A DNA stretch of 64,000 nucleotides from NCBI RefSeq assembly GCF_028368995.1, contig NZ_JAQNDL010000003.1:416001-480000 (forward strand), given 5' to 3'. The stretch's first letter is position 1. Every line of letters starts with the position of its first letter. Under the pieces are notes generated by a model that was not told where the DNA came from, did no database searches, and saw nothing but the letters and a program-made list of their open reading frames with translations. Positions 492-56,044 of the stretch are shown here, one piece after another. The DNA is from Nannocystis bainbridge (GTDB lineage Bacteria > Myxococcota_A > Polyangia > Nannocystales > Nannocystaceae). Position numbers and translations under genes: made by a program.

Positions 492-811
492 GCAGCGCCG
501 CCATGCGAGAGCTAGTGACTCGCTCGCCGCCGACCACCCTCTCGCACCCGGTCGTCCCTTTGCACGCCATCCTCGCGCTCGTTCGCGCGGGCGCTTCCTA
601 CATGTCCCTTGCGCAAGGTGTCCCAATGCCGGTCCGTGACGAGCCTCGCGCCTCCCGTCCCTGTACAAGCTGGCGGCGAGCCGATACCGTACGCCGCATG
701 CATGCTGTCACCTCGGCCTCGCCGACGGCTCGGTTCGCCGTCTCGCCGGGGTACGACGGCACGCCGTCAACCTCAGCTCCGTCCCGGTCCTAGCGGGGCA
801 GGAGGGTCCAA

Positions 812-1480
812 GTGGGTCGCCTCAAGATATTCTCGCTGTTCTTCGGCGTCGGCCTCGTATCTGCGCTCGCCCCGATGCTCGTGGGCGGCTGCACGCAGTG
901 CGAAGAGTTCCGCGAATGCACCACCAAGCCGGGCCTGCGCTATGTCGAGTGCGGCAACACCCAGCACGAGTTCAACGACGGCGTCTCGGTCGAGGACGAG
1001 GACATCGCCTGGGATTATTGCTACTGCAACAGCAGCCGGCTGCAGTGCGAGAACGGCTCGAGCCTGCGCATGTGCAATTACATGACCGTCGACGGCAGCA
1101 CCGCCGCCCAGTACAACGACGGCACGGTCGCCGAGCTCACCACCGCGGTCGCGGGCTGCCTCGAATACACCGGCTGCGCCATCGAGACCGCGCGCTGCAA
1201 CTACGGCAGCTGGTATCTCAACTGTTCGCGCGGCGAGGAGCGGGCCTTCGTCAGCGGCGCCGGCGCCGTCTTCAAGGACGAGAAGAACGCCGTCGACACC
1301 TGCGTCGCCCGCGGCCCCGGCGGCTTCCTCTGCACGCCGATCATCAGCGACTGCGAGGACCTCGACTCGTGCGCCAGCAGCAAGGCCTGCAGCGAGTTCT
1401 GTTCCAAGCCCGCCTGCTTCAACAACAAGAACGCCGCGAGTTGCATCGCCGACCCCGCGTGCCGGTGGACCCCGCAATGA
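812..1480 (+). CDS. Cys-rich putative lipoprotein
   Basis: Hydrophobic signal ending LVGGC, 21 Cys, GC3-rich codons, GGAGG upstream, ATGA overlap with next gene. Confidence 0.7.
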   Translation: MGRLKIFSLFFGVGLVSALAPMLVGGCTQCEEFRECTTKPGLRYVECGNTQHEFNDGVSVEDEDIAWDYCYCNSSRLQCENGSSLRMCNYMTVDGSTAAQYNDGTVAELTTAVAGCLEYTGCAIETARCNYGSWYLNCSRGEERAFVSGAGAVFKDEKNAVDTCVARGPGGFLCTPIISDCEDLDSCASSKACSEFCSKPACFNNKNAASCIADPACRWTPQ

Positions 1481-2601
1481 CCGCGCCTCGCACCCTCCTC
1501 GCCGCGGCGCTCTCGACCGCGCTCGCCCTCCCGGCCCCCGCCCTCGCCGCGCCCGCGCCTGTGCCCGTGGCCGCCGCGCCCGTCGACTGGTCGTCCACCT
1601 TCACGCCGGCCGGCGCCAGCGCCCACCTCGGCGACAAGAAGCCCAACGTCATCGTCATCGCCGCCAACCCCGGTTCGCAGGCGGCCTCGGCGGTGTTCCG
1701 CTCGGCGCTCACCGCCTCGCGGAAGGCCGGCGTGGTGATCGACGGCCAGGCGCTCGGCGCCGTCGAGAGCCTCGACGACCGCGCCATCATCGACCGCGCC
1801 AAGGTCCTCCCGGTCCAGCAGATCGTCATCGTCCGCGTGTTCGAGGGCAGCCCCGGCGACCCGCCCAGCTTCATCGCCATGGGCTACGGCACCGACGGCA
1901 CCGTCTCCGTCGCGCTCAGCGGCACCGCCGGCGTCCCCCTGCCCGAGCCGGAGATGCCGACCGAGGTCAGCGTGCCCGACGCGGTCCCCGACACCGCGGA
2001 GGAGGGCCCCAAGGAGCCGGAGGAGTCGGACGAGGCCAAGCGAGCCCGCGAGGCGGCCGAGCAGGAGTACGCGGCCAAGCGCCTCGACGGCACCTGGGGC
2101 GCGCTGCGCCAGGGCACTCCGGGCACCTCGATCACTCCGATGCAGTTCTACGCCGCGATCGGCCGCGATGACCTCGCGCGTCAGGTCGACAGGCGCAAGA
2201 AGACCCGCCTCGGCGTCGCCCTCGGCGGCGGCATCGCCGGCGGCGGCCTGCTCGCGGTCGGCCTCACCTTCCTGATCCTCAACGCCACCGCAGCCCAGAA
2301 CGGCCCCGATTTCGGCGCCGACGACCCGCTGCGGGGCGGCACCGATCGCATCCGCTACCCGCTGTCGATGCCCGTCTCGGGCACGCTGCTCGGCGTCGGC
2401 GCGGCCCTCCTCATCGGCATGGGCGTGTTCCTCGGCGTCTACAAGGCCCACCCGGTCGGCCGCCGCGAGGTCCCCGGCCTCATCGACCGCCACAACCGCG
2501 AGCTCCGCCAGAAGCTCGGCCTGGCCGGCGAGACCGCCAGCGTCCGCCTCGCTCCCAGCCTCGGCGCCAGCAACGGCCTCGTGCTCATCGGCCGCTTCTG
2601 A
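1477..2601 (+). CDS. Hypothetical exported/membrane protein
   Basis: MTAPRTLLAAAL signal peptide, two C-terminal hydrophobic segments, myxobacterial-type ...LVLIGRF end. Confidence 0.7.
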   Translation: MTAPRTLLAAALSTALALPAPALAAPAPVPVAAAPVDWSSTFTPAGASAHLGDKKPNVIVIAANPGSQAASAVFRSALTASRKAGVVIDGQALGAVESLDDRAIIDRAKVLPVQQIVIVRVFEGSPGDPPSFIAMGYGTDGTVSVALSGTAGVPLPEPEMPTEVSVPDAVPDTAEEGPKEPEESDEAKRAREAAEQEYAAKRLDGTWGALRQGTPGTSITPMQFYAAIGRDDLARQVDRRKKTRLGVALGGGIAGGGLLAVGLTFLILNATAAQNGPDFGADDPLRGGTDRIRYPLSMPVSGTLLGVGAALLIGMGVFLGVYKAHPVGRREVPGLIDRHNRELRQKLGLAGETASVRLAPSLGASNGLVLIGRF

Positions 2602-2605
2602 AGCA

Positions 2606-2643
2606 GGCCTGTCTCTCGGGACATGCTCTTCGGAGCATGTCCC
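2606..2643. repeat. 14-bp-phased GACATGTC-family array forming a perfect hairpin between convergent genes
   Basis: Cores at 2606, 2620, 2634; GGGACATGCTC-TTCG-GAGCATGTCCC at 2618-2643. Confidence 0.85.
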
Positions 2644-2644
2644 T

Positions 2645-4482: not shown

Positions 4483-6296
4483 CTCGCGCCCCCGAGCGCC
4501 ACGAACGCCCCGTCGATCCAGCACTCCGGCCCGTCCGGCCCCGCCCCGATCACCACCCGTCGCAGCCGCGTCCTCGCCTGGCACGCCTCCAGTTGTACCC
4601 GCAACGACTTGAGCACAGGTCCTTCGGGACATGTCCCTTCGAACATCATCCCGGCCCGCTCGAGCTCCGCCTGCACCGCCGCGGCCGCCGGCGGGCTGCG
4701 CGGCGCGACCACCTGCGCAGCCCCGCGAAAGCCCAGCGCCGCCAGCAATTCCGGCCACGCCTCCGGCCCCAGCCACGGGTCGCGCACGCACGCCAGCGAC
4801 CGATCGCTCGCCGCCGGCACGATCACCGCTGCGCTGCGCGGGCCCCCGATCGCCACCCACGCCCGCGGCGGCTCCAGCGGCCGCTCGCGCCCGACCCACA
4901 CCAGCGCCGCCAGCACTCCCACGCACGGCAACGTCCCCGGCACCCAGCGCAGCACCGCCGGTCGCCGCACGAACCATCGCAGCCCCAGCCCGATCGTCGC
5001 CAGCCCCGCGAGCAGCGGCCACGGCGGCTCCGGCACCTGCGCGAACAGGCTCGCCAGATCGATCACCACCTGCCCGCCGAGCGCCGCCGGTCGCAGCGCC
5101 TCCGGCCCCCACCACGGCGCCGCCGCCAGCCCCACGATCCCGAGCGGCAGCACCCACAGCGTGAACACCGGCACCGCGATCACGTTGGCCACCACCCCGA
5201 TCAGCGACGCCTGCCCGAAGTGCACCAGAACGATCGGCAATGTCCCGAAGGACACCCGCCAGCTCTGCGCCACCAGCCCGCGCGGCGCCTCCGGGTGGAC
5301 CAGCACCGCCATCGCCGCCAGCGACAGGTGCAGCCCCGGATCCAGCGCCCACGCCGGTCGCCACGCCAGCATCGCCGCGGCCGTCCACGCCAGCGCCGTC
5401 AGCCCGTGCCCCGGCCGGCCCGTCAGCGTCGCCACTTGAGCCAGCCCGAACATCACCGCCGCCCGCAACGCCGGGGGTTCGCCGCCTGTAACCCCCAGGT
5501 AGGCCAGCACCGGCAGCCACGCCAGCGCTGCCGCCAGCGTCAGCGATCCACCGAGCAGCAGACCGGCGCGCAGCAGCGGCCCCTGGACCAGCGCCGCTGC
5601 CACTGCCACGTTCATCCCGCTGACCGCCACCACGTGGCCGAGTCCTGCCCTTCGCAGCGCTGTCCGGCGTTCGGGCGCGAGCGCCGCGGGCTGGCCCAGC
5701 ACCGACGCCACCACGAAGCCCAGCGCCGGGTCGCCGCGTGCGGCTCGCGTCGTCCCGTCGCGCAGCTCGGCCACTGCCCGCCAGTAACCCTCGCTCCGCG
5801 GCCCCGCACGCCACGCGTTCTCCACCGAAAACGCCGCCACGGCCCCGTCGCGGGCTGGATCGAAGCTCCCCGCACCCGGCCACGACGGACCCTCGCGACG
5901 CGCGAGATCTCCGGCCTTGAGCCAGATTGGATCGCCCGCTGCAAGCGGACAAATCGCCTCGGGTACGTGCAGGGACCACACATTCGAGCTCCCTGCCGGT
6001 GTCGCAAACACGGCACAGCCCGCCGCTGCAGGGGCGCTCGCCCCGCGGACCGTCACGCGGATCAGCCCGGGCCCCGCGATCTCCGGCGCCTCCGCTTGCG
6101 GCAGCCGCCCACGCGCCGCCCCGGCCAGGCCTGCTGCCAGCACCACCGCGGGCGCTGCCAGCTTGCGGAGCCGCTGGCTCGCCGCTGCCGACAGCCCTGC
6201 CGCGCCTGCCAGCGCTGCTGAGTCTGCCCAGCCCGCATGCGCGAAACCGAGCACGACACCCATACACCAGGCCAGGCAGAAACACAGCGGCAGCAC
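4479..6296 (-). CDS. comEC: ComEC/Rec2 family competence protein (start uncertain)
   Basis: GLGHVVAVSGMNV, PPALRAAVM, DPGLHLS, HFGQASLIGVVANVIAVP competence-domain motifs. Confidence 0.85.
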   Translation of the reverse strand: MLPLCFCLAWCMGVVLGFAHAGWADSAALAGAAGLSAAASQRLRKLAAPAVVLAAGLAGAARGRLPQAEAPEIAGPGLIRVTVRGASAPAAAGCAVFATPAGSSNVWSLHVPEAICPLAAGDPIWLKAGDLARREGPSWPGAGSFDPARDGAVAAFSVENAWRAGPRSEGYWRAVAELRDGTTRAARGDPALGFVVASVLGQPAALAPERRTALRRAGLGHVVAVSGMNVAVAAALVQGPLLRAGLLLGGSLTLAAALAWLPVLAYLGVTGGEPPALRAAVMFGLAQVATLTGRPGHGLTALAWTAAAMLAWRPAWALDPGLHLSLAAMAVLVHPEAPRGLVAQSWRVSFGTLPIVLVHFGQASLIGVVANVIAVPVFTLWVLPLGIVGLAAAPWWGPEALRPAALGGQVVIDLASLFAQVPEPPWPLLAGLATIGLGLRWFVRRPAVLRWVPGTLPCVGVLAALVWVGRERPLEPPRAWVAIGGPRSAAVIVPAASDRSLACVRDPWLGPEAWPELLAALGFRGAAQVVAPRSPPAAAAVQAELERAGMMFEGTCPEGPVLKSLRVQLEACQARTRLRRVVIGAGPDGPECWIDGAFVALGGAR

Positions 6297-8877: not shown

Positions 8878-8913
8878 GACATGCCCCTTTGAACATGCCC
8901 GAACGGGCATGTC
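8878..8913. repeat. 14-bp-phased array (3 cores) downstream of def
   Basis: gacatgcc 8878, aacatgcc 8892, ggcatgtc 8906. Confidence 0.8.
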
Positions 8914-10857: not shown

Positions 10858-10879
10858 CACATGTCCCTCAAGACATGTC
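10858..10879. repeat. 14-bp-phased pair
   Basis: cacatgtc-cctcaa-gacatgtc. Confidence 0.8.
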
Positions 10880-10944
10880 CCTTCGACCCTCTCACAGCCC
10901 GCCGCTTCGTGGATCGGCGCCGGCCTGCGCGCTATCGTGGCGGC

Positions 10945-11961
10945 ATGGCCTACCGACTCACCCGCAGCGAGTCCATCCATCAGGCCGCGCTGCGGATCGT
11001 CGACGAAGAGCTGGGCCAGGCGATCGCTCGCCTGCGTGAGGCCCACCCCGACGCTCCCGACACGCACACCCGCGTGCACGCGGCCCGCAAGGCGATCAAG
11101 CGCACCCGGGCCCTGGCTCGCCTGCTGCGCGACGGCCTCGGCGCCGGCTTTCACCGCGACAACCTCGACCTCCGCGACGCCGCCCGACGCCTCGCCGAGC
11201 GCCGTGACGCGGCCGTCGCCGCCGACGTGTTCACCGGCCTCTTCCCCGAGTCCGAGGGCGCGCTGGCCGTCGTCCGCGAGCGCCTCGCCGCCGTGCGCGA
11301 CCAGGCCGTCGCCGGCGAGGACGCGCTCGACTCGGCCGCCGACGACCTCGCCCGCGTCCGCCAGCGCAGCGCCGACTGGCCCGCCCTGGCGCGGGGCTTC
11401 GACGCGCTCGAACCTGGCCTGAAGGCCAGCTACCGCCAGGGCCGCCAGGCCATGCGCGACGCCTTCGCCGACCCGAGCCCGGAGGCGTTCCACGCCTGGC
11501 GCAAGCGCGTCAAGGACCTCTGGTACCACACCCTGCTGCTGCAGAACGTCTGGAAAGGCGTGCAAGCGGCCTGGGCCGAGGCGATCGAGCAGCTCTCCGA
11601 CGCGCTCGGCGAAGACCACGACCTCGAGGTCTTGCGCATGGCCCTCGGCCAGCACCGCGATCTCAACGCCGAGGCCCGCCGCGCCGTCCTTGCCCGCGCC
11701 GACGCCCGCAGCGCCGAGCTGCGCGCCCGCGCCTGGTCGCTCGGCCGCCGCCTCTACGCCGAACGCCCGCGCCGCTACATCGCGCGGATCAGCCACTACT
11801 GGCAGGTCTGGCGCAGCGGCCAACCCCGCCCGGCCGAACCCCGCCCCAGCCGCGGCGCCGAGGCCCCCAAGACCTCGCTGGCGCCCGATCCGGAGTTCAT
11901 ATGTCCCGGAGACCAGGTCGCCGAGGACATGGCCCAAAAGTCATGTGACGGCGATGACTGA
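10945..11961 (+). CDS. CHAD domain protein
   Basis: VHAARKAIKRTRALARL, FHAWRKRVKDLWYH, LGEDHDL motifs. Confidence 0.9.
   Translation: MAYRLTRSESIHQAALRIVDEELGQAIARLREAHPDAPDTHTRVHAARKAIKRTRALARLLRDGLGAGFHRDNLDLRDAARRLAERRDAAVAADVFTGLFPESEGALAVVRERLAAVRDQAVAGEDALDSAADDLARVRQRSADWPALARGFDALEPGLKASYRQGRQAMRDAFADPSPEAFHAWRKRVKDLWYHTLLLQNVWKGVQAAWAEAIEQLSDALGEDHDLEVLRMALGQHRDLNAEARRAVLARADARSAELRARAWSLGRRLYAERPRRYIARISHYWQVWRSGQPRPAEPRPSRGAEAPKTSLAPDPEFICPGDQVAEDMAQKSCDGDD
11898..11947. repeat. Degenerate 14-bp-phased array inside the 3' end of the CHAD gene
   Basis: catatgtc 11898, accaggtc 11912, gacatggc 11926, gtcatgtg 11940. Confidence 0.65.
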
Positions 11962-12004: not shown

Positions 12005-13108
12005 TCAGTCCTCGCCGACGTAGCCGTCCTCGAAGCAGTAGAGGCGCCGCGCGAAGTTACACTTGGAGGACAACGCGACCGTCCACTGCCGCTCGGCACG
12101 CCACGCCTCCCACGCTGGCCCCATCTCGACAGCCAATCCATTGAGCCCACGCATGGCTTGAAAGCGGCCCGCAGCCGATGTCCAGCTGTCGCAGTGGTCG
12201 AGCGGGTGCAGCACGTTCCCGAGGCCGGTGGTGTTGGTCCACACGAACTCCTCGGTCACCATCGCCCCGGTCTCGTCGATCGAGAGCCCGGTTCGTGGCC
12301 CGCTCGCCACCAGCTCGGCGAAGTCCGCCGCGATCACGCGCCCGTTGCGGAGGAAGTAGGGCACCTGCTGCAGATCGATCTGCTCGAACCGCGACGACGG
12401 CGACTGCGAACCGTCCGACAGCCACGCGCGGAACGTGTCGGCGTTGGCCAGCCCGACCGCCTTGGCCCGATCCCGACAGCGGATGTCGGCCCCGTCGAGC
12501 CCCCCGAGCGCGCCCGTGTAGACCTGGCTGGTCACGAACGCCAGACGCCCCTGCCACGTACAGCCCGCCCGGCACGGCGGCTCCTCGCCCGAGGCGACGC
12601 CGGTCCCGTTGAGGTCGCCCAGATCGCACACCTCGAAGCCCTCGTCGACGACCCCGTCCCCGCAGTGGGCCGCCAGCTGGCAGCCGTCGCAGCCGCCGTA
12701 CTCGCTCGAGTTGCCGTCGCCGAGGTCGCACGCCTCCACGCCTGCCCGCACGAAGCCGTCGCCGCAGACCGCCGCGGCGCACTGGTGCGTGCACGCGCCA
12801 TGGTCGGCGTTGGCGGGCCCGTCGTCGCACGCCTCGCCGGCATCGATCGCCCCGTCGCCGCAGTAGGACATGGCCTCGCCGGTGGAGGTGCTGGTGGTCC
12901 CGCCCGGATCGTCCGCCGTGGTGGTCGGCGCCTCGCCGGTGCTCTCCGTGCCGTCCGGCATCTCGCTGGTGGTCGCCGGGGCCGCGCTCGTCGTGCCCGG
13001 CTCGCTCGCCGTCGTCGCCGGCGCGCCCGGGTCCTCGCCCGTACAGCCATATGTCCCCCAGGACATGCCCGCAAAGACAGCCGCGATACGGATCCGCGTC
13101 AATGCCAT
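12005..13108 (-). CDS. Myxococcus Cys-rich repeat (DUF4215-like) plus DUF1554-like lipoprotein
   Basis: Three CGDG...E.CD repeats; FVTS...[13 protein letters not shown]...FRAWLSD...VWT domain. Confidence 0.8.
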
Positions 13109-14068: not shown

Positions 14069-14200
14069 GCGCGACATGTCTCTCGAGACATGTCGCGCCC
14101 GGGCTACGGCGTACTTCCGCCCCTCGCCGCGCGCCCTCGACCCGAGCTTTCTCCGTGTCCTCGACGAAATAACTTTAAGACATGTCCTTCACGACATGTC
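14069..14200. repeat. Two 14-bp-phased GACATGTC pairs; the first is a perfect inverted repeat
   Basis: Cores 14073/14087 (gcgcgacatgtctc-tc-gagacatgtcgcgc) and 14179/14193. Confidence 0.85.
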
Positions 14201-14210
14201 CCATGATTCA

Positions 14211-14757: not shown

Positions 14758-15729
14758 TCAGCCCTGCGCCGCGCGGCGCAGCCGATCCGCGATCGCCCGC
14801 CCGAGCCCGACCTCGGGCACCGTCTCGACCACGATCGTCTCGACCTCTGGCGCGTCGAGCTCGCGCAGCGCGGCGAACAGCGCGTGCGCATAGCCCTCGA
14901 GCTCCGCCGGCATCACCTGCCAGCGACCGACGAACCCGGGCGGCCGCGGCCGCTGGCTCATCACCGCCACCGCGGGGCCGCCCAGCGCCGCCGCCTCGCC
15001 GGGCGCCACCAGCACCACCCGGGCCCGCGGCGCATAGTGACGGTGGCGCAGACCTGGCGATCGGGACATGGCCTCCGGGTCCTGTCCCGAGAGCACATCG
15101 ACCTCGCCGACGGCCGCCCGCAGCGCCTCGAGCGGCAGCCCGCCCATGCGCAGCACCATCGGCACCGGCCGCGTCGCGTCGACCACCGTCGACTCGAGCC
15201 CGACCGCGCACGGCCCCCCGTCGAGGATCACCTCGACCACCCCGTCGAGGTCGGCGAGCACGTGCCCGGCGGTCGTCGGGCTCGGCCGGCCCGAGCGGTT
15301 GGCCGACGGCGCCGCCAGCGGCCGCCCGCACGCGCGCAGCAGGGCCAGCGCGGCCGGGTGGCCGGGGATCCGCACGGCCACGGTGTCTTGCCCGGCGGTG
15401 GTCGCGTCGGGCACGACGGCGGCGCGCGGCAGCACCAGCGTCAGCGGACCTGGCCATAAAGACATCAGCCGCTCGGCCGCCGGCGGCACCGATCGCGCCA
15501 GCGCTCGCGCCTGCTCCGGGGCCGCCACGTGCACGATCAGCGGGTTGTCGGCCGGCCGCCCCTTGGCCGCGAAGATCCGCCCCACCGCCGCCGCGTCGAG
15601 CGCGTCAGCGCCGAGGCCGTAGACCGTCTCGGTCGGGAACGCCACCAGCCCGCCGCGGCGCAGCACCTCGGCCGCGCGGGCGATCGCCGCCGGGTCGTCG
15701 GCCGGCAACAGGGCTGTCTTCACGGACAT
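14758..15729 (-). CDS. sua5: L-threonylcarbamoyladenylate synthase (Sua5 type)
   Basis: VAFPTETVYGLGADA, KGRPADNPLIVH, AAPSANRSG, SPG...HYAP (SUA5 domain). Confidence 0.95.
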   Translation of the reverse strand: MSVKTALLPADDPAAIARAAEVLRRGGLVAFPTETVYGLGADALDAAAVGRIFAAKGRPADNPLIVHVAAPEQARALARSVPPAAERLMSLWPGPLTLVLPRAAVVPDATTAGQDTVAVRIPGHPAALALLRACGRPLAAPSANRSGRPSPTTAGHVLADLDGVVEVILDGGPCAVGLESTVVDATRPVPMVLRMGGLPLEALRAAVGEVDVLSGQDPEAMSRSPGLRHRHYAPRARVVLVAPGEAAALGGPAVAVMSQRPRPPGFVGRWQVMPAELEGYAHALFAALRELDAPEVETIVVETVPEVGLGRAIADRLRRAAQG

Positions 15730-15768
15730 GTCTCTTCCGCCATCCCCGGCTGTCCGCCGGGACATGTC
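15725..15768. repeat. GACATGTC modules between the kinase stop and the sua5 start
   Basis: gacatgtc 15725 (contains sua5 start codon) and tgtc-cgccgg-gaca-tgtc 15751-15768. Confidence 0.7.
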
Positions 15769-19782: not shown

Positions 19783-19846
19783 GGCGCGAGCGGCCAGCGG
19801 AGCCTCGCGGCGACGAGGCCCGACGTCTGCCAGATCCGTCCGAATG

Positions 19847-19896
19847 GACATGCCCGTTCGAGCATGCCCTTTCGGGCATGTCCACGACGACATGCC
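19847..19896. repeat. 14-bp-phased array (4 cores) between convergent genes
   Basis: gacatgcc 19847, agcatgcc 19861, ggcatgtc 19875, gacatgcc 19889. Confidence 0.85.
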
Positions 19897-21256: not shown

Positions 21257-21348
21257 GCGCTGTCTCAATAGACATGTCCTCTCGGACATGTCTATTTCGC
21301 CATGTCCGGACGGACATGCCCCCGGGGGCATGACCTATCCGCCATGTC
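21257..21348. repeat. Longest 14-bp-phased array (7 positions) between convergent genes
   Basis: Cores at 21257 (half), 21271, 21285, 21299, 21313, 21327, 21341. Confidence 0.9.
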
Positions 21349-24231: not shown

Positions 24232-27876
<3,645 letters not shown>

Positions 27877-29619: not shown

Positions 29620-29724
29620 GACATGCCCTGAAGGACATGCGCCGTCTCAATGCATCTTGAGACATGTCCATGAGAGCATGCCTCTTTGGACATAAACTTT
29701 CGCGCATGCTCTGGGAGACATGTT
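29620..29724. repeat. Two 14-bp-phased arrays (2 + 5 cores) between convergent genes
   Basis: 29620, 29634; 29661, 29675, 29689, 29703, 29717. Confidence 0.85.
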
Positions 29725-37828: not shown

Positions 37829-37864
37829 TACATGTCCCTTTCGACATGTCCCTTAAAACATCCT
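37829..37864. repeat. 14-bp-phased array at the right edge of the accessory block
   Basis: tacatgtc 37829, gacatgtc 37843, aacatcct 37857. Confidence 0.8.
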
Positions 37865-39051: not shown

Positions 39052-40203
<1,152 letters not shown>

Positions 40204-40271: not shown

Positions 40272-43200
40272 GTGGCCGGCCCCGGAGACACCCAAGCGCC
40301 CCGCGCCGGCGCCTCGGAGCTGGACGCGACCACGGCCCCGCCCGCGCTTTCGGCCAGGGACCCGCTCGCCACCGTCGCCAGCGCCAGGCCAGCCCCGCCG
40401 GTCCACGACCCGCTCGCCACCGTCGCCAGCGCCAGGCCGGCCCCGCCGGTCCACGACCCGCTCGCCACGATCGCCAGCGCCAAGCCGCAGTGGGACGCCC
40501 CCGCGCCGGGCGAGCGCGACGCCGCCGGTCCGCCGCGGATCGGTCGCTTCGTGGTCCTGCGCGAGGTCGGCCGCGGCGCGATGGGGGTCGTCTACGCCGG
40601 CTACGACGAGGAGCTCGACCGCCGCGTCGCGCTCAAGTTGGTCCAGACCAGCGGCCACGACGACCCCTCGTTCGGCCGCGCCCAGCTGCTGCGCGAGGCC
40701 CAGGCGCTGGCCCGCCTCACCCACCCCAACGTCGTCGCCGTCCACGAGGCCGGCGAGTTCCGCGGCGCCGTCTTCATCGCCATGGAGTACGTCGACGGCG
40801 TCGACCTCCACCGCTGGCTGGCGCAGGCGCCCCGCAGCTGGCGCGAGATCGTCGCCGCTCTGCGCCAGGCCGGCGAGGGCCTGCGCGCCGCCCACGACGG
40901 CGGCCTGGTCCACCGCGACTTCAAGCCGAGCAACGTGCTCGTCGGCGCCGACGGCCGCGTCCGCGTCGCCGACTTCGGGCTCGCCACCCGGCGCGGAAGG
41001 ACAGGTTCTTCGGGACATGTCCCGAAGACCACGTCACCGCTGATCACCGCCGAGGCCCTGGCGACCCTCGCCGGCAGCGGCGCGCTGATCGGCACCCCCG
41101 CTTACATGGCGCCGGAGCAGCTGCGACGCGAGCCGGCCACCGCCGCCAGCGACCAGTTCGCGTTCTGCGTCACCCTCTACGAGGCGCTGTACGGCCGGCG
41201 CCCGTTCACCGGCGACACCCTCGAGGTCCTCGCCGAGCACGTGCTGCACGCCGAGCCGCCGCCGGCCGCGCCCGACCCGCGCGTGCCGCAGTGGCTGCAC
41301 GCCGTGCTCGTGCGCGGCCTGGCCAAGGATCCCGCGCGCCGCCACGCCGGCATGGCCGAGCTGCTCGAGCTGCTCGGCCGCGATCCCGAGGCCGAGCGCC
41401 GGCGCACCCGTCAGCGGCTGCTGCAGATCGCCGTCGCCGTGGCCGCCACCGTGATCGTCGTGCTCGGCGGCGTCGCGGCCACCCGCGCGCTGGTCCGCGC
41501 CACCGACGAGCGCCGCGCCGAGGCCCGCCTCGACGTGCTGCGCGGCCAGCTCACCGCCCTCACCGTCGCCCGCAAGCCCGACGAGGCCGCCCGCCTGTTC
41601 GCCGCCTTCGCCGCCCTGCCCGACAACCGCGGCACCGCGGCCCTGGCCCGCGCCTACCGCGAGTGGGGCGAGGCCCAGACCGACCCCGCCGCCGCCATCG
41701 ACGCCCACGCCGGCGCCTACATCGCCGCGCGCACCCGCGAGGACCAGGCCGCCGCCCTGCGCCTGCTCGCCCTGCGCCTCGCCGACAGCCGCAACTTCAC
41801 CGCCGCGGCCGCCGCCGTGGCCGCCCTCGACGCCCGCGCCCCCGAGCTCGCCGGCGACCCCCAGCTCGCCGGCCTGCGCCTGGCCGCCGCCCTCGACCGC
41901 CGCGACCTGCCGGCCGCCCGCGCCGCCCTCGACCGCCTGCCGGGCGACGATCCGAGGAGGTCTTACGGACATGTCCTTGAGAACATGTCCTCGGGGACAT
42001 TCATCGCCCGCACCGCGATCGGCCAGCGCCGCGGGGTCGACCCCGAGTTCACCGTCGGCGACTTCGACGGCGACGGCCGCCTCGAGCTGGCCACCCACGC
42101 CGACCAGCGCGAGTCGGTGGTGGTGCTGCGCGCCGACCCGAGCCTCACGCGCGTGGCCGAGGTGCCGGCCCCCGGCCTCGCCGCCGCCGCACGCATCTTG
42201 CCGCCCGCGCTCGGCGGCGAACCACTGCTGCTGCTCGGGTTCGAGAACCCTGGCGGCATCGGCGACGCCTTCGTCCGCTACGCCGTCCACCCCGCGCACG
42301 CCGGCCCGAAACTTCACGAGTGGCTCGACAGCGCGGTCCTCGGGGCCGCCGTCGCCGACCTCGACGGTGACGGCCGGGCCGAGCTCTACACCGGCAGCGG
42401 CCCGTACGCCCGCAAGCTGCGGCAGACCGCTCTGGATCCTCAAGGCGCGTGGCAGACCCGGCCCGCCCACCCCTCGACTGACGCCGCCATCTCCGACATC
42501 AACGCCGTGCTCGCCGGCGACCTCGACGGCGACGGCCGGGCCGAGCTCGTGGTCGTCGCCGGCCCGTGGTCGGCCTACGACGTCCGCGTGTTGCAGGCCG
42601 GCGACGACGGCCGCCTGCGCATGCTGGCCCGCCGCAGCCTCGGCTTCGTCGAGTCGGCGGTGCTGCTGCGGGCCGGCGGCGAGCTGCGGATCGCCGCCAC
42701 CAAGCGCGACGACTACCCCAACCCCGGCCGCTTCTCCGAGGCCGCCCCGTACGGCGAACCCGAGGGCCTCTACGTGCTCGCGCTCGACGGCGACACGCTG
42801 GCCACGCGCCAGCACTTCGCGCTGCCCGAGGGCGCCGAGCCGCGCTCCGGGCCTCGCTGGCTGCGCGTCGTCGACCTCGACGGCGACGGCGTCGACGACC
42901 TCGTGGCCGAGAGCGCGCACGACCTGGCGATCCACCGCGGCGACGGCGAGGCCTTGCAGGCGCCGCTGCGGCTCGCCGGCGTGCACGTGCGCGCCGCCGC
43001 CGACTTCGACGCCGACCCCGCTCACGAGCTCCTGGTCGTCTTGCCCGGCGACGGCGACAACCTCGTCATCCTCGGCGCCGGCGACACCCCGCTGCCCGCC
43101 ATCGACCGCCCCGAGCCCGAGGCCCGGCCGATCGGCGCCGTCTCCGACCCCGCGCTCGTCGACGCCTGGCAGCACGCCGAGGAGCTGGCCGCCATCGGCC

Positions 43201-45172: not shown

Positions 45173-45173
45173 C

Positions 45174-46224: not shown

Positions 46225-47115
46225 ATGACCGTCACCGCCCGCCCGCTCTCCCCCGGCGCCGAGGCCCTGCTGGGGCGCGAGGTCCCCGTCCTCGACCTGG
46301 GCTTCGTCCAGCCGATCGACTACATGGGCAACGACAACGACATCGTTCAGGCCGCTCGCGTCAGCTACGGCCCGTCCACGCGCAAGGTCCACGACGACCG
46401 CGGCCTGCTGCGCTACCTCATGCGCCACCGGCACACCACGCCGTTCGAGATGTGCGAGGTCAAGTTCCGCTGCAAGATGCCGATCTTCGTCGCCCGCCAG
46501 TGGATCCGCCACCGGACGGCCAACGTCAACGAGATGTCGCTGCGCTACAGCGAGGCGCCCGACGAATTCTACGTCCCGGCGCTCGAGCACGTCACCCTGC
46601 AGTCGACGACCAACCGCCAGGGCCGCGACGCCGAGACCGCCGTCCCCGCCGAGCTGCGCGAGCGGGTGCGCGCCCTGCTGCACACCCGCCACGAGCAGCT
46701 CTACGCCGACTACCAGACCCTCGCCGGCGAGCTCGGGATCGCCCGCGAGCTCGCCCGCACCCTGCTGCCGGTGTCGCTTTACACGCAGTGGATCTGGAAG
46801 ATCGACCTGCACAACCTGATGCATTTCCTCGACCTCCGCCTCGACCCCCACGCGCAGATCGAGATCCGCCTGTTCGCCGAGGCGATGGCCGGGTTCGTCC
46901 AGGCGTGGGTCCCGCAGTCGTGGGAGGCCTTCGTCGACTACCGCCGCGAGGCCCTGCCCCTCACCCGCCTCGACGGCGTGGCCCTGGCCCACATGCTGAA
47001 GGGCGAGGACGCCGACGCCGCCGCCGCCCGGGCCGGCCTCCAGGGCCGCGAGCTGCGCGAGTTCCACGACAAGCTGGCCCGCCTGCGCGGCCTGACCGAA
47101 GAGTCAGGTTCGTAG
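46225..47115 (+). CDS. thyX: FAD-dependent thymidylate synthase
   Basis: AARVSYG, HTTPFE, IFVARQWIRHR-x7-SLRYS, RELAR, LHNLMHFL.LR..HAQ.EIR. Confidence 0.97.
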   Translation: MTVTARPLSPGAEALLGREVPVLDLGFVQPIDYMGNDNDIVQAARVSYGPSTRKVHDDRGLLRYLMRHRHTTPFEMCEVKFRCKMPIFVARQWIRHRTANVNEMSLRYSEAPDEFYVPALEHVTLQSTTNRQGRDAETAVPAELRERVRALLHTRHEQLYADYQTLAGELGIARELARTLLPVSLYTQWIWKIDLHNLMHFLDLRLDPHAQIEIRLFAEAMAGFVQAWVPQSWEAFVDYRREALPLTRLDGVALAHMLKGEDADAAAARAGLQGRELREFHDKLARLRGLTEESGS

Positions 47116-47152
47116 CGACATGTCCCCGAGGGCATGCCCCGAAGGGCATGTC
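47103..47152. repeat. 14-bp-phased array between convergent genes
   Basis: gtcaggtt 47103, gacatgtc 47117, ggcatgcc 47131, ggcatgtc 47145. Confidence 0.85.
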
Positions 47153-47164
47153 TCGAAGCGCACC

Positions 47165-48034: not shown

Positions 48035-48199
48035 GACATGTCCGCAAGGACATGCATGGCATCACCTGCCTGAGATGGCCTCATGGACATGCCCTTTAAA
48101 ACATGTCCATGAGGCCATCCAGCCGGAGCACGCCGCCTCCCCCTCATCCAAAACTTTCGCAGGACATGCGCCTTTCAAACATGTCCTCGAAGTCACAAG
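48035..48199. repeat. Cluster of 14-bp-phased arrays with an 18-bp-arm perfect inverted repeat
   Basis: Cores 48035/48049/48063; 48072/48086/48100/48114; 48163/48178 (15-bp spacing); IR gatggcctcatggacatg...catgtccatgaggccatc 48074-48119. Confidence 0.85.
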
Positions 48200-51425: not shown

Positions 51426-51434
51426 CGCCGGCAC

Positions 51435-51566
51435 GACATGTCCCCGCGGACATGTCCCATCGGCGCGCCGTAGCACCGCCGCTGCGACTGATGTCCCATC
51501 CAACATGTTACAAAGGACATATGACCGCCGGCGCGCCGCTGCGAATGATGTCGCATCCGACACATC
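51435..51566. repeat. Three 14-bp-phased groups between convergent genes
   Basis: 51435/51449; 51488/51502/51516; 51545/51559. Confidence 0.8.
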
Positions 51567-53257: not shown

Positions 53258-53355
53258 ACAAGCTCGCAAGGACATGTCCTTTACGACATGTCCCAATCTT
53301 CATCCACCAAGAGCCGGCGCGCGGCTCCGGCACGCCCTGTCCCTTGAGACAGCCA
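53257..53355. repeat. 14-bp-phased array plus an isolated TGTC-N6-GACA monomer
   Basis: 53257 (degenerate)/53271/53285; tgtc-ccttga-gaca 53338-53351. Confidence 0.85.
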
Positions 53356-53507
53356 CGAAGATCGCGTCCGCGCTCCCGCGCGCGCAGCGCCGCAGGCCAG
53401 CGAGATCGACCGGCTCGCCCCCATGACCCCGCATGAGGCCGCCCCTGCACCCCTGGCCTTGCCGGCGCGCCGGACGGTCGTACACAGCGCACGCGAGGGC
53501 CGCCGTC

Positions 53508-54176
53508 ATGCTCACCAAAATTCCGTTCACCGAGATCCTCAAGTCCGTCCCTGGCTTCTTCGGGATCCGCCTCGAGGAGCAGCCGAAATACGAGGTGGTC
53601 GAGACGCTGGACGACGTCGAGATCCGTCACTACGCGCCGGCGCTGCTGGCCCGCCTCACGGTCGAGGGCGAGCACGACAAGGCCGTCGACCAGGCCTTCG
53701 ACCGCCTCGCCCGCTACATCTTCGGCGAGAACCACCCCCAGGTCCGCATGGCGATGACCGTCCCGGTCGAGCAGCACCCCGAGGGCGAGCCCGGAGCGCT
53801 GGCCGTCCCGACCGAGCCCCACCCCGAGGGCGAGCGCATGGCCATGACCGTCCCGGTCGTGCAGAAGCAGGGCGGCAACGGCTGGACCGTCGCCTTCTTC
53901 CTCTCCAACGAGCTCTTCACCTCCGAGGCGCCGCGCCCCGACGACCCCGCGATCGAGCTGATCCACGAGCCCGCGCGCACCGTCGCCGCCCTGCGCTACC
54001 GCGGCAACTCCTCCGAGAACAAGCGCGAGGACTCCCGCCGCCGCCTGCTCGCCGCCCTGGCCAACCACCCGCGCTGGCAGATCGCCGAGAACGTCTACTG
54101 GGCCCAGTACGACGCCCCCTTCACCCTCCCGTTCGCCAAGCGCAACGAGGCCCTGGTCGAGCTCGAGTCGCGCTGA
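53508..54176 (+). CDS. SOUL family heme-binding protein
   Basis: EQPKYEV...EIRHY...AFDRLARYIFGEN...MAMTVPV (twice)...AQYDAPFTLPFAKRNE. Confidence 0.9.
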   Translation: MLTKIPFTEILKSVPGFFGIRLEEQPKYEVVETLDDVEIRHYAPALLARLTVEGEHDKAVDQAFDRLARYIFGENHPQVRMAMTVPVEQHPEGEPGALAVPTEPHPEGERMAMTVPVVQKQGGNGWTVAFFLSNELFTSEAPRPDDPAIELIHEPARTVAALRYRGNSSENKREDSRRRLLAALANHPRWQIAENVYWAQYDAPFTLPFAKRNEALVELESR

Positions 54177-54348
54177 CCCGCCGCTCTCCTCCCGCGCGAC
54201 CGACTCGCCGACTCACGCTCGACGCGCGCCGCGCCGACACGTCGAGTCATCCGCCGAAGAGCGCCGTGGAAGCGTGTTCGACCACGCCCGCGAGTTTGCC
54301 CGCCGAAGAGCGCCGCAGAGCCGCATCCTCCCCCTCGCCTCCGGCCTC

Positions 54349-54398
54349 GGCCTGCCCATCAGGACATGTCTTCGATGACATGTCCTGCGAGACACATC
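54349..54398. repeat. 14-bp-phased array between convergent genes
   Basis: ggcctgcc 54349, gacatgtc 54363, 54377, gacacatc 54391. Confidence 0.85.
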
Positions 54399-55638
54399 AC
54401 TGCGCTCGCCGCCGGCGCCGCCCGGCCAGCAGCATCAGCGACGCCAGCCCTGCCAGCCCCGCGTCTCCGGCTCCGCTCGCGCAGCCGCAGCCGCGGTCGC
54501 CGAGCCCGTCGTCCTCCGCCCGCCCGGTGCCCTTCTGGCACGCGGGATCGGGCTCGAACGGCGCGTCGCTCTTCTCCTCCGGCGGCTTCGCCGCCCACTC
54601 GATCTCGAGCTCGTCGGACAGCGCCCCGAGCTGCGCCCGCAGCACCGCCCGTCGGCTCTCCGGCACCGTCGGCGGTGGCGCGCAGTTGTCCTCGATCGAG
54701 GTGTACTCCGGCGGCGCGGAGTCGTTGAAGCGCTCGAACGCCAGCTCGCCCTCGACCAGGCTCCACGTCACCGGCGCGCCGATCATCACCTTGCCCTCGC
54801 CGTCGCGCACGATCGCCCGCGCCCCGAACGGCGTGCCGGCGAAGGCCGCCACGATCTCGAGCGACGCCGCCTGCTCGACCGGCGTCGCCACCACCGTGGC
54901 CACCGGCAGCACCGCGCCCGCCACCTCGAGCGTGATCGTGCGCGTCTCCCCCGGGCCGACGCGCATCGGCCAGATCGTCTCGGTGTCCTCGATCGGCGTC
55001 AGCGCCTGCCCAGGTCCGCCGTCCGTCGCCGCCAGCACCCGCCCCTGCGCCAGGTCCCAGGCGACCCGCTCGCCCGCCCCGTCGATCACGTTGATGGGGA
55101 AGCCGACCGTCACGCCCGGCACCAGCCGCAGCGGCTCGTCCGCGGCCGGGATCCGGTCGGCCGGTCGCGACGAAAGCCGCTCGGCGAAGCGCTCCGCCTT
55201 CAGCTCCATGTGCCACTCGAGCCGCGCTCGCAACCCGTCGACGGGGACCACCTCGACGCGGAAGCGGTCGGGCAGGACCTCCCATTCTTCCTCGAGACAG
55301 ACCGCGCTCGGCGTGTAATCGACCTGCACCCCGCTCGGCCCGTCGAGGATCACGCAGCCGCCGTCTTTGAACGGCACCCCCGCGATCGCCATGTCGTAAC
55401 ACTCCTCGGCACCGTGGACCGTTACGCTGCCCGCATCGAACTCCGCGAGGTCGAAGCACACGGTCGAGCCCTGCAGGGCGCGCAGCCCCGATGGCTGCTG
55501 GATCTCCGAATAGAACAGCGGCGACAGCGACACGCGGAGACGCCCCTCCTCGCTGTTGGGCTCCGTGCAGCCGCTCGCGGCCAGACAGACGCTCAGGACC
55601 AGGCACCCGGGGACGACGTGGACAATCCAATGAGACAT
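54397..55638 (-). CDS. MYXO-CTERM sorted surface protein
   Basis: N-terminal signal with ASGC; C-terminal RGCGCASG...LASLMLLAGRRRRR. Confidence 0.8.
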   Translation of the reverse strand: MSHWIVHVVPGCLVLSVCLAASGCTEPNSEEGRLRVSLSPLFYSEIQQPSGLRALQGSTVCFDLAEFDAGSVTVHGAEECYDMAIAGVPFKDGGCVILDGPSGVQVDYTPSAVCLEEEWEVLPDRFRVEVVPVDGLRARLEWHMELKAERFAERLSSRPADRIPAADEPLRLVPGVTVGFPINVIDGAGERVAWDLAQGRVLAATDGGPGQALTPIEDTETIWPMRVGPGETRTITLEVAGAVLPVATVVATPVEQAASLEIVAAFAGTPFGARAIVRDGEGKVMIGAPVTWSLVEGELAFERFNDSAPPEYTSIEDNCAPPPTVPESRRAVLRAQLGALSDELEIEWAAKPPEEKSDAPFEPDPACQKGTGRAEDDGLGDRGCGCASGAGDAGLAGLASLMLLAGRRRRRAQ

Positions 55639-55966
55639 AGGCCCTCAGGATCTGCGCCGCTCGGGGCGAAGTCAACTCTCGGCTGCCCGACCTCGCTACC
55701 TGGAAACAGCGCCGCCGACCCACCCCCGACCGCGAAGCCGACATCCTGTCCTTCGCGCCATGTCACCGCATCGACCTCGGGACCCGTCCGACCTCGAAGC
55801 ATTGCAACTTCGCAAAGCCACCAGGACGGCCCCCGACCCCGCGGCCTCGATCGACCCCTCCGGGCGACGGGCGATCGGACGTGCACACCGGTCGCGGAGC
55901 CCCTGGAACGACACCGACGCCTCGCCGGGGTCGCCAAGTCCCCGCCTCTCCACGCGGCTCGTTCGT

Positions 55967-56044
55967 TCACTGTCTCTCGAGACATGTCTTTCATGACATG
56001 TCCATGAATACATGTCCGATTCGACATGTCTCACTCGACATGTC
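55967..56044. repeat. Most regular 14-bp-phased array (5 full cores plus a half)
   Basis: tgtc-tctcga-gacatgtc-tttcat-gacatgtc-catgaa-tacatgtc-cgattc-gacatgtc-tcactc-gacatgtc. Confidence 0.92.

Follow-up and report, generated by a model that had tools for sequence, protein, structure and literature searches.

The window, by which we mean the whole stretch of 64,000 nucleotides analysed here, carries short palindromic elements both between and within its genes, as single copies and as arrays. The loci are given below with the strand of the neighbouring genes in brackets.

2606..2641: array of 2-3 units that takes up the convergent gap between ORF 1477-2601 (+) and the selA-like gene 2645-3994 (-)
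4614..4649: abutting elements at 4618 and 4632, in the 3' part of a ComEC-like ORF, which scores low and is of uncertain coding status
5241..5254: exact single element within the ComEC-like ORF
8878..8913: degenerate 3-core array past the stop of ORF 8225-8800 (+)
10858..10890: 2-core array between tandem genes (gap 10537-10944)
11898..11947: degenerate array where ORFs 10945-11961 (+) and 12005-13066 (-) converge
13048..13083: exact element and degenerate neighbour, ~25 nt past the stop of ORF 13108-13944 (-)
14073..14206: two 2-core arrays (14073-14094, 14179-14200), the second 15 nt past the stop of ORF 14211-14588 (-)
15715..15768: two elements (15715, 15751), 7 nt past the stop of ORF 15771-16706 (-)
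19837..19896: array of 4-5 units between convergent genes (gap 19783-19914)
21257..21348: array of 6-7 units between convergent genes (gap 21221-21334)
24800..24813: one-mismatch element within dnaE (24232-27876, -), with a second at 26977-26990
28841..29160: two single elements (28841, 29147) within an SBP_bac_5 gene
29620..29724: interrupted array that begins at the SBP gene's stop (29631) and lies in the convergent gap ahead of the kinase ORF 29787-32288 (-)
33419..33432: exact single copy close to the 5' end of the putative ORF 33316-34989 (+), for which no Pfam match was found
37829..37860: 2-3 unit array, 44 nt past the stop of ORF 37890-38435 (-)
40169..40200: array of 2-3 units that overlaps the final codons, stop included, of the RlmN-like gene 39052-40203 (+)
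41968..42000: 2-3 unit array in the kinase/FG-GAP ORF 40272-44876 (+), between Pfam domains
43253 and 43621: further elements in the same kinase/FG-GAP ORF
47103..47162: 3-unit array that takes up the convergent gap between the thyX-like gene 46225-47115 (+) and ORF 47165-47791 (-)
48035..48117: interrupted array between divergent genes (gap 47792-48338)
51435..51566: 2-core array followed by degenerate units in a convergent gap, 14 nt past the stop of the FG-GAP gene 48339-51425 (+)
53271..53351: 2-core array, 18 nt past the stop of ORF 52625-53257 (+), plus a lone element at 53338
54349..54398: 3-unit array in a convergent gap; its end lies 3 nt from the stop of ORF 54397-55638 (-)
55967..56044: 6-unit array, the longest of the window, 14 nt past the stop of the PEMT-like gene 56058-56534 (-)
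56541..56554: lone element with one mismatch, between tandem genes (gap 56535-56725)

The element is a 14-bp inverted repeat

An earlier note on this DNA had described dispersed palindromes phased at 14 bp, and our analysis confirmed that they are real and genome-wide. The sequence GACATGTC occurs 29 times in the window, compared to 0.75 ± 0.99 expected from 100 dinucleotide-preserving shuffles (maximum 4). The distances between the 244 CATG sites of the window peak sharply at 14 (33 pairs), 28 (12) and 42 (10), all other lags up to 100 having at most 8 each; 19 CATG clusters are linked at these distances, and Tandem Repeats Finder reported period 14 at seven window loci. Genome-wide, the same lags are found 3736, 2073 and 1586 times, while lags of 13 and 15 are found 72 and 262 times. 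Of the 26 places that had been listed, 25 hold at least one half-site pair with up to two mismatches; the one at position 599 is a single, weak half-site.

The minimal unit is the bipartite inverted repeat TGTCC-N4-GGACA, centred on its spacer. It is the top inverted repeat of the 5-N4-5 type in this genome of 11 Mb and 71.5% GC, with 1987 exact copies, whereas spacers of 0-3 and 5-11 give at most 16 each. Allowing up to one mismatch, 6245 copies are present (N3, 266; N5, 272), 37 of them in the window, where spacers of 1-3 and 5-8 give 0-3 each. The CATG-containing core arises where units abut and their outer arms fuse into GGACATGTCC, which also sets the 14-bp phase; only 369 of the 1987 exact copies have CATG on both flanks. 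The conserved core and the free spacer measure 10 and 4 bp, not 8 and 6 bp as noted earlier. No family matching the element was found in Rfam and no prior description of the word in the literature searched. Present in thousands of copies across genome and genus, the apparently undescribed word looks like a recognition word for a paired DNA-binding protein.

Position relative to genes

All gene contexts were taken from a purpose-made, crude gene caller that covers 81% of the genome. The position of the elements peaks 5-24 nt past stop codons. Convergent intergenic regions are occupied most often (748/1419, 53%), followed by tandem (1024/4313, 24%) and divergent ones (246/1444, 17%), and 378 of the 607 arrays with at least four CATG cores (62%) are convergent. 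An element is found within 100 nt past the stop of 1954 of 6920 genes and within 100 nt before the start of 542; the 100 nt upstream of gene starts are depleted. Where tandem gaps are long, elements are densest 10-25 nt past the stop (~4 per nt), thinning to ~1 per nt beyond 200 nt, a profile that suits a function at the 3' end at least as well as it suits mere tolerance. Genes with higher codon scores more often have a 3' element, a trend that could reflect expression instead of nativeness.

About 40% of all copies (2439/6245) lie inside genes, for instance under the Pfam domains of the SBP_bac_5 gene and within the dnaE reading frame. High-confidence interior coding DNA contains 430 exact and 1027 one-mismatch copies, compared to 0-3 and 54-127 for control spacers.

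Only 234 of 6917 protein genes are followed by a strict hairpin-plus-T terminator. Many tRNA genes of the genome are followed by ordinary hairpin-plus-T terminators with unrelated stems, and the element lies downstream of only 8 of 104 tRNA/tmRNA genes. At tandem loci a T-rich tail was detected in 55 of 1321 cases (~4%), its mirror image in 35; the minority of elements with such a tail look like true intrinsic terminators.

Base tolerance within the element

In one-mismatch variants the tolerance is specific for the base and mirror-symmetric: positions 2/13 and 4/11 are nearly invariant, positions 3/12 and 5/10 tolerant (8 and 7 changes at 2/13, 171 and 219 at 3/12), and the most tolerant position of the stem is the middle one. 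Changes that keep a wobble pair in the sense RNA (257) are about as frequent as those that keep it in the antisense RNA only (234), so that there is no sense-strand bias. The loop shows no strand preference either (CGAA 73, TTCG 82). At the 3/12 pair, uncompensated C·A (631) exceeds compensated C-G (385), meaning that covariation is absent. Flank composition is mirror-symmetric, the flank bases are independent of each other (mutual information 0.03 at the first flank position), and the 1069 true single copies (657 intergenic, 412 genic) show no complementarity outside the 5-bp arms (observed/expected 0.74-1.18). Half-site words are not enriched once inverted repeats are masked (ratios 1.04-1.32). 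In arrays, variant arm triplets are complementary across the spacer about twice as often as in controls (e.g., CTC 72 and 63 vs. 24 and 34), which hints at some hairpin or palindrome constraint. Judged by the other patterns, recognition looks protein-like, the element behaving as a double-stranded DNA site for a putative symmetric, dimeric protein. The binding code proposed in the earlier note is borne out as far as this symmetric recognition pattern is concerned.

Turnover and conservation

Among element pairs up to 150 nt apart, 1318 of 3018 are in the 14-bp register; with more than half of the pairs out of register, a fixed phase is not obligatory. Arrays reach 20 units, and their lengths fall off roughly geometrically. 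The array at C3:1085843 contains eight near-identical units, showing recent unit duplication; slippage of 14-bp units and multiples thereof lengthens and shortens arrays, contrary to the argument against slippage made earlier.

At orthologous places where other species have at least two elements, the genome has at least one in 22 of 24 cases and an equal number in 7 of 24. Arrays are kept at the same gene end in congeners where the rest of the gap cannot be aligned, with conserved CATG cores and diverged spacers. The array at 19837..19896 has such counterparts in two congeners, and the array at 21257..21348 is kept in three with differing spacers. In dnaE, arms identical to the window are present in 4/5 (24800) and 5/5 (26977) congeners, and the SBP_bac_5 element at 29147 keeps its arms while its spacer differs among species. 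The per-site conservation excess of genic copies is weak: the element is retained at 32 of 53 orthologous genic sites, and identity at third codon positions is 0.868 for the motif, 0.832 for the flanks and 0.684 for the spacers, a comparison small enough (204 third-codon motif sites) to be compatible with moderate selection.

Distribution in accessory DNA and among relatives

The word is scarce in accessory or recently acquired DNA. A 3' element is present at 0-17% of the genes in low-density blocks and at 31-45% of those elsewhere; two of the four blocks were tested, and both are without long synteny in most congeners, whereas the window stretch tested is syntenic in 5/5. Exact copies number 114-2090 in the Nannocystis genomes (11/11) and 87 and 161 in two sister genera, a weak enrichment; 12 other genera of the family have 1-7 and 16 genomes of other families 0-8. 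Among the genomes compared, enrichment is thus found only in Nannocystis and, weakly, the two sister genera; the note had guessed the family, Nannocystaceae, correctly. The strong tie to gene 3' ends, the ~40% of genic copies, the scarcity in accessory DNA and the growth of arrays by slippage were absent from that note.

The genome encodes a ComEC domain, DprA and a ComEA-like ORF, the last below the curated cut-off. The same searches also matched controls (9-11 of 14 genomes), and these genes are common in non-competent bacteria; they are only a necessary condition for a role in DNA uptake.

Interpretation

What the analysis established is the word itself, the rule of its spacing, a symmetric constraint that is specific for the base, where the word lies, how far it extends among taxa and how its arrays turn over. 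From these we infer a protein and a role in uptake or self-recognition: TGTCC-N4-GGACA may be a self-DNA recognition word with dynamics like those of DUS/USS or HIP1, a reading to which we give a probability of roughly 40%. This lineage-specific, hyper-abundant 14-bp word would be read on double-stranded DNA by a dimeric protein of the DNA-uptake, recombination or modification machinery that prefers word-bearing DNA. The word accumulates where the genome tolerates it, being commonest in promoter-free DNA just past stops, most of all where genes converge, rarer upstream of genes, present also in coding sequence and scarce in recently acquired DNA. Such a distribution, together with the weak per-site conservation in genes, would mark a 'self' word propagated by a bias acting across the genome, for which DUS/USS and HIP1 are the best precedents. 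Arrays at gene ends would be tolerated, perhaps partly co-opted as hairpins with a 10-bp stem. Against uptake speaks that known uptake words are asymmetric and single, whereas TGTCC-N4-GGACA counts only as an inverted repeat. To our knowledge, no uptake word forms phased arrays of up to 20 units.

Close to the proposal of the earlier note, a chromosomal protein could bind cooperatively at gene 3' ends, with dimers on abutting sites 14 bp apart forming short filaments between gene ends that serve as transcription roadblock or insulator, topological barrier or nucleoid anchor. The protein-like recognition pattern agrees with this equally well, and the exact register of 1318 pairs, the peak past stops that persists in long gaps, the occupancy of convergent gaps by elements and long arrays, the rarity of strict terminators past protein genes, the persistence of arrays amid unalignable DNA and the rise with codon score all argue for it. 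We nevertheless regard it as rather unlikely, as 2439 copies lie in genes, where a roadblock would be harmful, and a block starting 5-24 nt past the stop would, given the footprint of RNA polymerase, bring the enzyme to a halt at the stop codon or ahead of it. More than half of the close pairs are out of register, genes of accessory blocks mostly lack elements, and so do tRNA/tmRNA gene ends. No nucleoid protein known to us recognises a word this specific that is present in thousands of copies.

The position past stops and in convergent gaps is typical of REP elements and terminators, and two adjacent cores could form a hairpin of a 10-bp stem and a 4-nt loop in the 3' UTR, acting as RNA or single-stranded DNA, ending or stabilising transcripts from either direction and owing its uniform sequence to shared origin. 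The fixed 4-nt spacer would be an ideal loop, the array at 55960-56055 has a predicted fold of -31 kcal/mol (z = -3.1), and the minority of elements with T-rich tails, the complementary array triplets and the rarity of classic terminators past protein genes point the same way. We consider such a hairpin improbable: covariation and wobble bias are absent, the middle of the stem tolerates most changes, the flanks are mirror-symmetric, the single copies have 5-bp arms without flank pairing, 430 exact copies lie in interior coding DNA, and tRNA genes use ordinary terminators instead. No Y1/RAYT transposase gene (Y1_Tnp, PF01797) was found in the genome, nor a match in Rfam. Least probable, and in our opinion very doubtful, is a by-product without function of its own. 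Either a sequence-biased repair or modification system, as was reportedly once proposed for HIP1, would over-represent the word, or a burst of a now-dead small repeat would have been followed by microsatellite-like slippage in neutral DNA. Weak genic conservation, recent unit duplications, the geometric array lengths and an accumulation that is greatest where constraint is least are in line with this, but arrays persist at 22 of 24 orthologous places with cores kept while spacers diverge, and third-codon identity is higher in the motif than in the spacer. Genic copies arose by point changes, as a reading frame cannot take an insertion of 14 bp, and a more than 100-fold excess in coding DNA would need a strong and very specific bias, itself another system.

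Comparison with known systems

REP/BIME elements with RAYT, known from enterobacteria and pseudomonads, are short, genus-specific palindromes in at least hundreds of copies, located just past stops and in convergent gaps and often clustered with fixed linkers. The Nannocystis word resembles them in its short palindromic units, copy number, placement, clustering and genus specificity, but its unit has 14 bp (REP, 20-40 bp), no detectable pairing constraint and no accompanying Y1_Tnp gene, and ~40% of its copies are genic. Intrinsic (hairpin plus U-tract) terminators share the position past stops, the hairpin potential and, in a minority, the T run; in contrast to them the stem sequence is uniform and a T-rich tail is confined to 55 of 1321 tandem loci. 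In the met-boxes of MetJ, short palindromic boxes lie head-to-tail in exact register and are bound cooperatively by one dimer each. The head-to-tail repetition in register is shared, but MetJ-type operators are few per genome and located in promoters, whereas the Nannocystis word occurs in thousands at gene 3' ends and within genes and is depleted in the 100 nt before starts.

HIP1 (GCGATCGC) of cyanobacteria is described as a hyper-abundant, lineage-specific palindrome with about one copy per gene in coding and non-coding DNA and with sites conserved within and between ORFs, its function having long been obscure, with no evidence for a gene-level role (PMC5861425). The Nannocystis word is likewise a hyper-abundant, lineage-specific palindrome of coding and non-coding DNA, but bipartite with a 4-bp spacer where HIP1 is an uninterrupted 8-mer, and its genic copies have only a weak excess of conservation whereas HIP1 sites are reported as conserved. 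Links of HIP1 with methyltransferases and, in newer work, with transformation have also been reported.

DUS of Neisseriaceae and USS of Pasteurellaceae are asymmetric 9-12-mers that count as single words, whereas the Nannocystis word is enriched only as an N4 inverted repeat, forms phased arrays of up to 20 units and carries a T tail at ~4% of loci. DUS and USS are lineage-specific short words with hundreds to thousands of genic and intergenic copies, the intergenic ones being inverted repeats concentrated in the terminator zone; they are rare in recently acquired DNA, and their density or dialect varies among related taxa (bioRxiv 10.1101/2025.10.24.684340). The Nannocystis word shares with them the lineage specificity, the genic and intergenic occurrence, the concentration at gene ends, the scarcity in acquired DNA and the differences in density among relatives.

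The repeated unit is a 14-bp inverted repeat with a fixed spacer

The window contains 29 occurrences of GACATGTC, compared to 0.75 ± 0.99 in dinucleotide-preserving shuffles, and the whole genome (11.05 Mb on five contigs, 71.5% GC) contains 2237. Among the 244 CATG sites of the window, a distance of 14 nucleotides was found 33 times, 28 nucleotides 12 times and 42 nucleotides 10 times, with all other distances up to 100 occurring at most eight times. Genome-wide, the counts are 3736, 2073 and 1586, in comparison to 72 at distance 13 and 262 at distance 15, showing that the phasing described in the earlier note goes well beyond chance. Tandem Repeats Finder detected period-14 arrays at seven window loci. 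Elements are present at 25 of the 26 places that the note had listed; the remaining one, position 599, is a lone half-site.

A position matrix of the 3736 in-register junctions revealed a core consisting of the 10-bp palindrome GGACATGTCC, which is followed by four free bases. The fixed spacing reported before is thus confirmed, but the sizes given for it, an 8-bp core and a 6-bp spacer, have to be corrected. The minimal recurring object is TGTCC-N4-GGACA, an inverted repeat centred on the spacer (termed element or word here). GGACA and TGTCC of abutting units fuse into the core, which generates the 14-bp phase. The genome contains 1987 exact copies, while no other spacer length between 0 and 11 yields more than 16; if up to one mismatch is allowed, 6245 copies are found with N4 compared to 266 with N3 and 272 with N5. 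Despite its composition, which is AT-richer than the genome, the word is the commonest 5-N4-5 inverted repeat present. Only 369 of the 1987 exact copies have CATG on both sides, and the first flank position of isolated copies is often C/G instead of A/T. Half-site words alone are close to expectation after masking of inverted repeats (ratios 1.04-1.32), showing that the dimeric site is the unit and ruling out the half-site as a word in its own right.

Element pairs up to 150 nucleotides apart are located at multiples of 14 in 1318 of 3018 cases. The register is therefore common, not obligatory. Eight near-identical units lie at C3:1085843 (contig C3), and other repeats have periods of 42 or 56. 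Identical neighbouring units of this kind reveal array growth by slippage, one or several units at a time, which the earlier note had argued against. GGACATGTCC also fits the half-site consensus of vertebrate p53, RRRCATGYYY; this is surely a coincidence, yet one that will produce misleading matches in literature and motif searches.

Elements accumulate behind genes and are also present in coding DNA

Gene context was derived from a crude codon-usage caller built for this analysis (7818 genes, 81% coverage), on which every context figure depends; for 24 window ORFs, Pfam agreed with the gene calls that mattered. Of the intergenic regions, elements are present in 748 of the 1419 convergent ones, in 1024 of the 4313 tandem ones and in 246 of the 1444 divergent ones. 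With a stricter definition based on CATG arrays, 661 convergent, 636 tandem and 138 divergent regions remain, and 378 of the 607 arrays with at least four CATG cores (62%) are convergent. The distance from stop codon to element peaks sharply at 5-24 nucleotides. An element lies within 100 nucleotides after the stop in 1954 of 6920 genes and within 100 nucleotides before the start in 542. Long tandem gaps have their highest element density 10-25 nucleotides after the stop and their lowest in the 100 nucleotides before the next start.

Called genes contain 2439 of the 6245 elements. High-confidence interior coding DNA (5.19 Mb) carries 430 exact and 1027 one-mismatch copies, compared to 0-3 exact and 54-127 one-mismatch copies for control spacers of 1, 3, 5, 7 and 10. 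Genic copies in the window include those in dnaE and in an SBP_bac_5 gene; copies are also present in the following ORF:

Window 4479-6656 (-), ORF matching the 'Competence' domain of ComEC (PF03772, E = 3.5e-34); three word copies in its called 3' part, where the codon score is low

Frame 0 accounts for 294 of 2379 genic copies and is dominated by Cys-Pro-x-Gly-Gln/His (C-P-x-G-Q(H)) peptides, which presumably resemble cysteine-rich repeat proteins and may account for peaks in element spacing at 36, 72, 108 and 144. A peptide motif as source of the word was rejected: its two main frames mirror each other and share no common peptide.

The word is dense in Nannocystis and turns over rapidly

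All ten congeners carry the two-core pattern. Among 14 further genera of the family it was found in one (two hits), and the 16 genomes from other families lack it. A scan of GTDB with one genome per species yielded 78 stretches, nearly all of them in records bearing the name Nannocystis or in Nannocystaceae/Myxococcales MAGs, with three stray singletons. Every one of the 11 Nannocystis genomes is enriched in the minimal word (114-2090 exact copies), and two sister genera are weakly so (G011 and G013, with 87 and 161 copies compared to 10 and 1 for controls). Background levels were found in the 12 remaining genera of the family (1-7 copies) and in the 16 genomes from other families (0-8). One sister genus contains single copies only, without arrays. 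No other outstanding 5-N(0-12)-5 inverted repeat, as would be expected for an alternative word, was detected in 400 kb and 200 kb of two sister genomes, G013 and G024, respectively. Among 2.9 million viral contigs a single stray match was obtained, a coding tandem duplication in a contig with 66% GC. The gradient runs from dense copies with arrays in Nannocystis, through a sparse scatter of single copies in the two sister genera, to none detectable in the other sampled genomes, and offers a natural experiment on how such words originate.

In orthologous convergent gaps of the congeners, arrays stay beside the same gene end while nothing else in the gap can be aligned; within these arrays the CATG cores are kept and the spacers diverge. 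Where another species has at least two elements, our genome has at least one in 22 of 24 mapped places, but an equal number in only seven of 24. Single elements of other species have a counterpart at 81 of 105 mapped places. Genic copies are kept in 32 of 53 orthologous sites, and in this small test third-codon identity was 0.868 for the motif, 0.832 for the flanks and 0.684 for the spacers. Constraint on genic copies is weak.

Low-density blocks are probably genomic islands

Element density is patchy, with a mean of 28 per 50 kb and a variance of 162. Almost no word copies are present in the following blocks:

C1:1100000-1300000, low-density block on contig C1
C2:750000-800000, low-density block on contig C2
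C2:1600000-1650000, low-density block on contig C2
C5:400000-500000, low-density block on contig C5

Low-density blocks have a lower GC content and a GC skew near zero, and a 3' element is found at 0-17% of their genes. Coverage by the codon-trained caller is lower in several of them (0.59-0.61 in the two lowest). Two of four stretches taken from such blocks were tested and are without long synteny in most congeners; the tested window stretch is syntenic in five of five. From the missing synteny of these two pieces we conclude that the low-density blocks are probably genomic islands. The word can already be used to tell core from acquired DNA in Nannocystis genomes and to flag gene 3' ends for annotation.

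Further repeats and clusters were observed:

C2:2556665-2559233, about 30 tRNA genes in 2.6 kb with visibly AT-richer spacers and zero word copies; looks like an acquired tRNA array
Window 36222-36275 and 37601-37654, 2.8 copies each of a 20-bp unit with the consensus GCCYCGGGCCGCGAGCCACT
Window 36367-37464 (-), ORF of 365 amino acids flanked by the two GCCYCGGGCCGCGAGCCACT repeats; these may delimit a segment that is mobile or has been duplicated
Window 40359-40486, tandem repeat of a 48-bp unit (2.7 copies that are 95% identical), close to the 5' end of the kinase/FG-GAP ORF 40272-44876

The word is more probably a protein site than an RNA hairpin

An inverted repeat behind genes might act as a hairpin in RNA or as a site in duplex DNA. 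Several observations favour the hairpin: variant arm triplets in arrays are complementary across the spacer about twice as often as controls, the array at 55960-56055 folds at -31 kcal/mol (z = -3.1), a few elements with T tails resemble real terminators, and in a strict scan classic terminators follow only 234 of 6917 protein genes. However, the substitutions do not follow pairing. At the arm pair 3/12, uncompensated C·A (631) is more frequent than compensated C-G (385; MI 0.02), and substitutions that would preserve a wobble pair in sense RNA (257) are not more frequent than substitutions that would preserve one in antisense RNA alone (234). Loop sequences are strand-symmetric and flank composition is mirror-symmetric. 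Likewise, 1069 true single copies (657 intergenic, 412 genic) are unpaired beyond their 5-bp arms (observed/expected 0.74-1.18). T-rich tails are present at only 55 of 1321 tandem loci, compared to 35 for the mirror image, and the classic terminator was rejected as a general explanation. Of the 104 tRNA/tmRNA genes, only eight are followed by an element; this speaks only weakly against a general terminator role because many of these tRNAs lie within clusters.

One-mismatch variants show a base-specific tolerance that is mirror-symmetric between the arms, with 8 and 7 changes at positions 2/13, 61 and 62 at 4/11, and 171 and 219 at 3/12. This symmetry, together with half-sites that alone are near expectation, supports a symmetric site for a dimeric protein, as suggested by the earlier note. 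On balance, these observations point to a duplex-DNA site for a symmetric dimer, and a hairpin role in arrays would be at most secondary.

Terminator-like structures in window 44000-63999 number five, compared to 3.2 ± 2.2 in shuffles. Many tRNA genes of the genome precede ordinary GC hairpins with a T tract (for example C1:21050, C1:362009 and C1:1004619); a recurring ...TTTGGTC(G) tail often closes the T tract and may represent another conserved feature of 3' ends. Downstream of dnaE (window 24050-24231), a hairpin-like sequence AACCTGGCC-CGAA-GACCAGGT is present, related but not identical to the word; it is found at the same place in three congeners with some bases changed.

Possible functions

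The word behaves like a protein site and builds up wherever the genome tolerates it, above all in promoter-free DNA behind stop codons, least ahead of starts, and in coding DNA too. It is scarce in acquired DNA, turns over fast at individual sites and is limited to one lineage. This combination leads us to rank a 'self word' comparable to DUS or HIP first, with a probability of roughly 40%. In that case it would be, to our knowledge, the first uptake or self-recognition word in Myxococcota. Such a signal would be palindromic and two-part, and could serve as a handle for easier genetic engineering of these natural-product-rich bacteria. As a recognition site, the word would represent a previously unnoticed genome-wide system covering about 0.8% of an 11-Mb chromosome (6245 x 14 bp).

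A protein that binds cooperatively at gene 3' ends is a less probable reading; the sharp peak behind stop codons speaks for it and the copies within genes speak against it. More doubtful is a specific role for a dimeric protein, sitting in register on arrays a few bases past stops, as a factor-dependent boundary of transcription units (terminator, insulator or supercoil barrier). If true, it would serve about half of the gene pairs in convergent orientation and, overall, as many as about 30% of genes. Bacteria would then have their own version of termination by a protein roadblock, here in a genome with classic hairpin-plus-U terminators behind only about 3% of its protein genes, and a new way to define gene boundaries. 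Equally unlikely is a REP-like RNA hairpin, for which the folding of the 55960-56055 array speaks; REP membership fails on RAYT, extragenic location and pairing. Least probable is a by-product without function; slippage growth and the weak constraint on genic copies speak for it, and cores kept in orthologous arrays speak against it.

Comparison with known systems

As the earlier note had stated, the repeats do not match CRISPR arrays, which consist of 23-50-nt direct repeats with unique spacers alike in length; here the period is 14 bp, the spacers have four nucleotides and there are thousands of dispersed loci. MITEs, with terminal inverted repeats and direct target-site duplications, were rejected because the flanks are mirror-symmetric (A/C left, T/G right) and genic copies cannot be 14-bp insertions. 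No Rfam family reached its gathering score in the window, and a full-text literature search found neither the motif nor a Nannocystis repeat family described.

Membership in the REP/REPIN-RAYT group was rejected on three grounds. The RAYT Y1 transposase (PF01797) has no match in the genome, which is 90.5% complete by marker genes, while the control search was positive in six of 14 reference genomes. REP/REPIN sequences are extragenic, whereas 2439 of 6245 Nannocystis elements lie in called genes and 430 exact copies in interior coding DNA. They are also imperfect palindromes of 20-40 nucleotides with maintained pairing, in contrast to a 14-bp unit without covariation, wobble bias or pairing of single-copy flanks. 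Intrinsic terminators combine a GC-rich hairpin with a direct U tract, in contrast to elements that are T-tailed at just 55 of 1321 tandem loci.

The closest match is the DNA-uptake enhancing sequences, followed by HIP1 of cyanobacteria (PMC5861425). Like DUS/USS, the Nannocystis word is lineage-specific, strongly over-represented in genes and intergenic DNA, concentrated in the terminator zone after genes and scarce in acquired DNA. For DUS/USS a single asymmetric word suffices, unlike in Nannocystis, where half-sites are near expectation (1.04-1.32). A preprint places about half of the uptake-sequence copies and more than 90% of their inverted pairs in predicted terminators (bioRxiv 10.1101/2025.10.24.684340). 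Generic uptake genes are present in the genome (a ComEC domain, DprA and a ComEA-like ORF below cut-off) and are not diagnostic. Like HIP1, the word is a hyper-abundant palindrome occurring about once per gene in coding and non-coding DNA (6245 copies, 7818 called genes). The word belongs with the lineage-specific, hyper-abundant words, among which it stands out by a two-part palindrome, a spacer of strictly four bases and phased arrays located where genes end.
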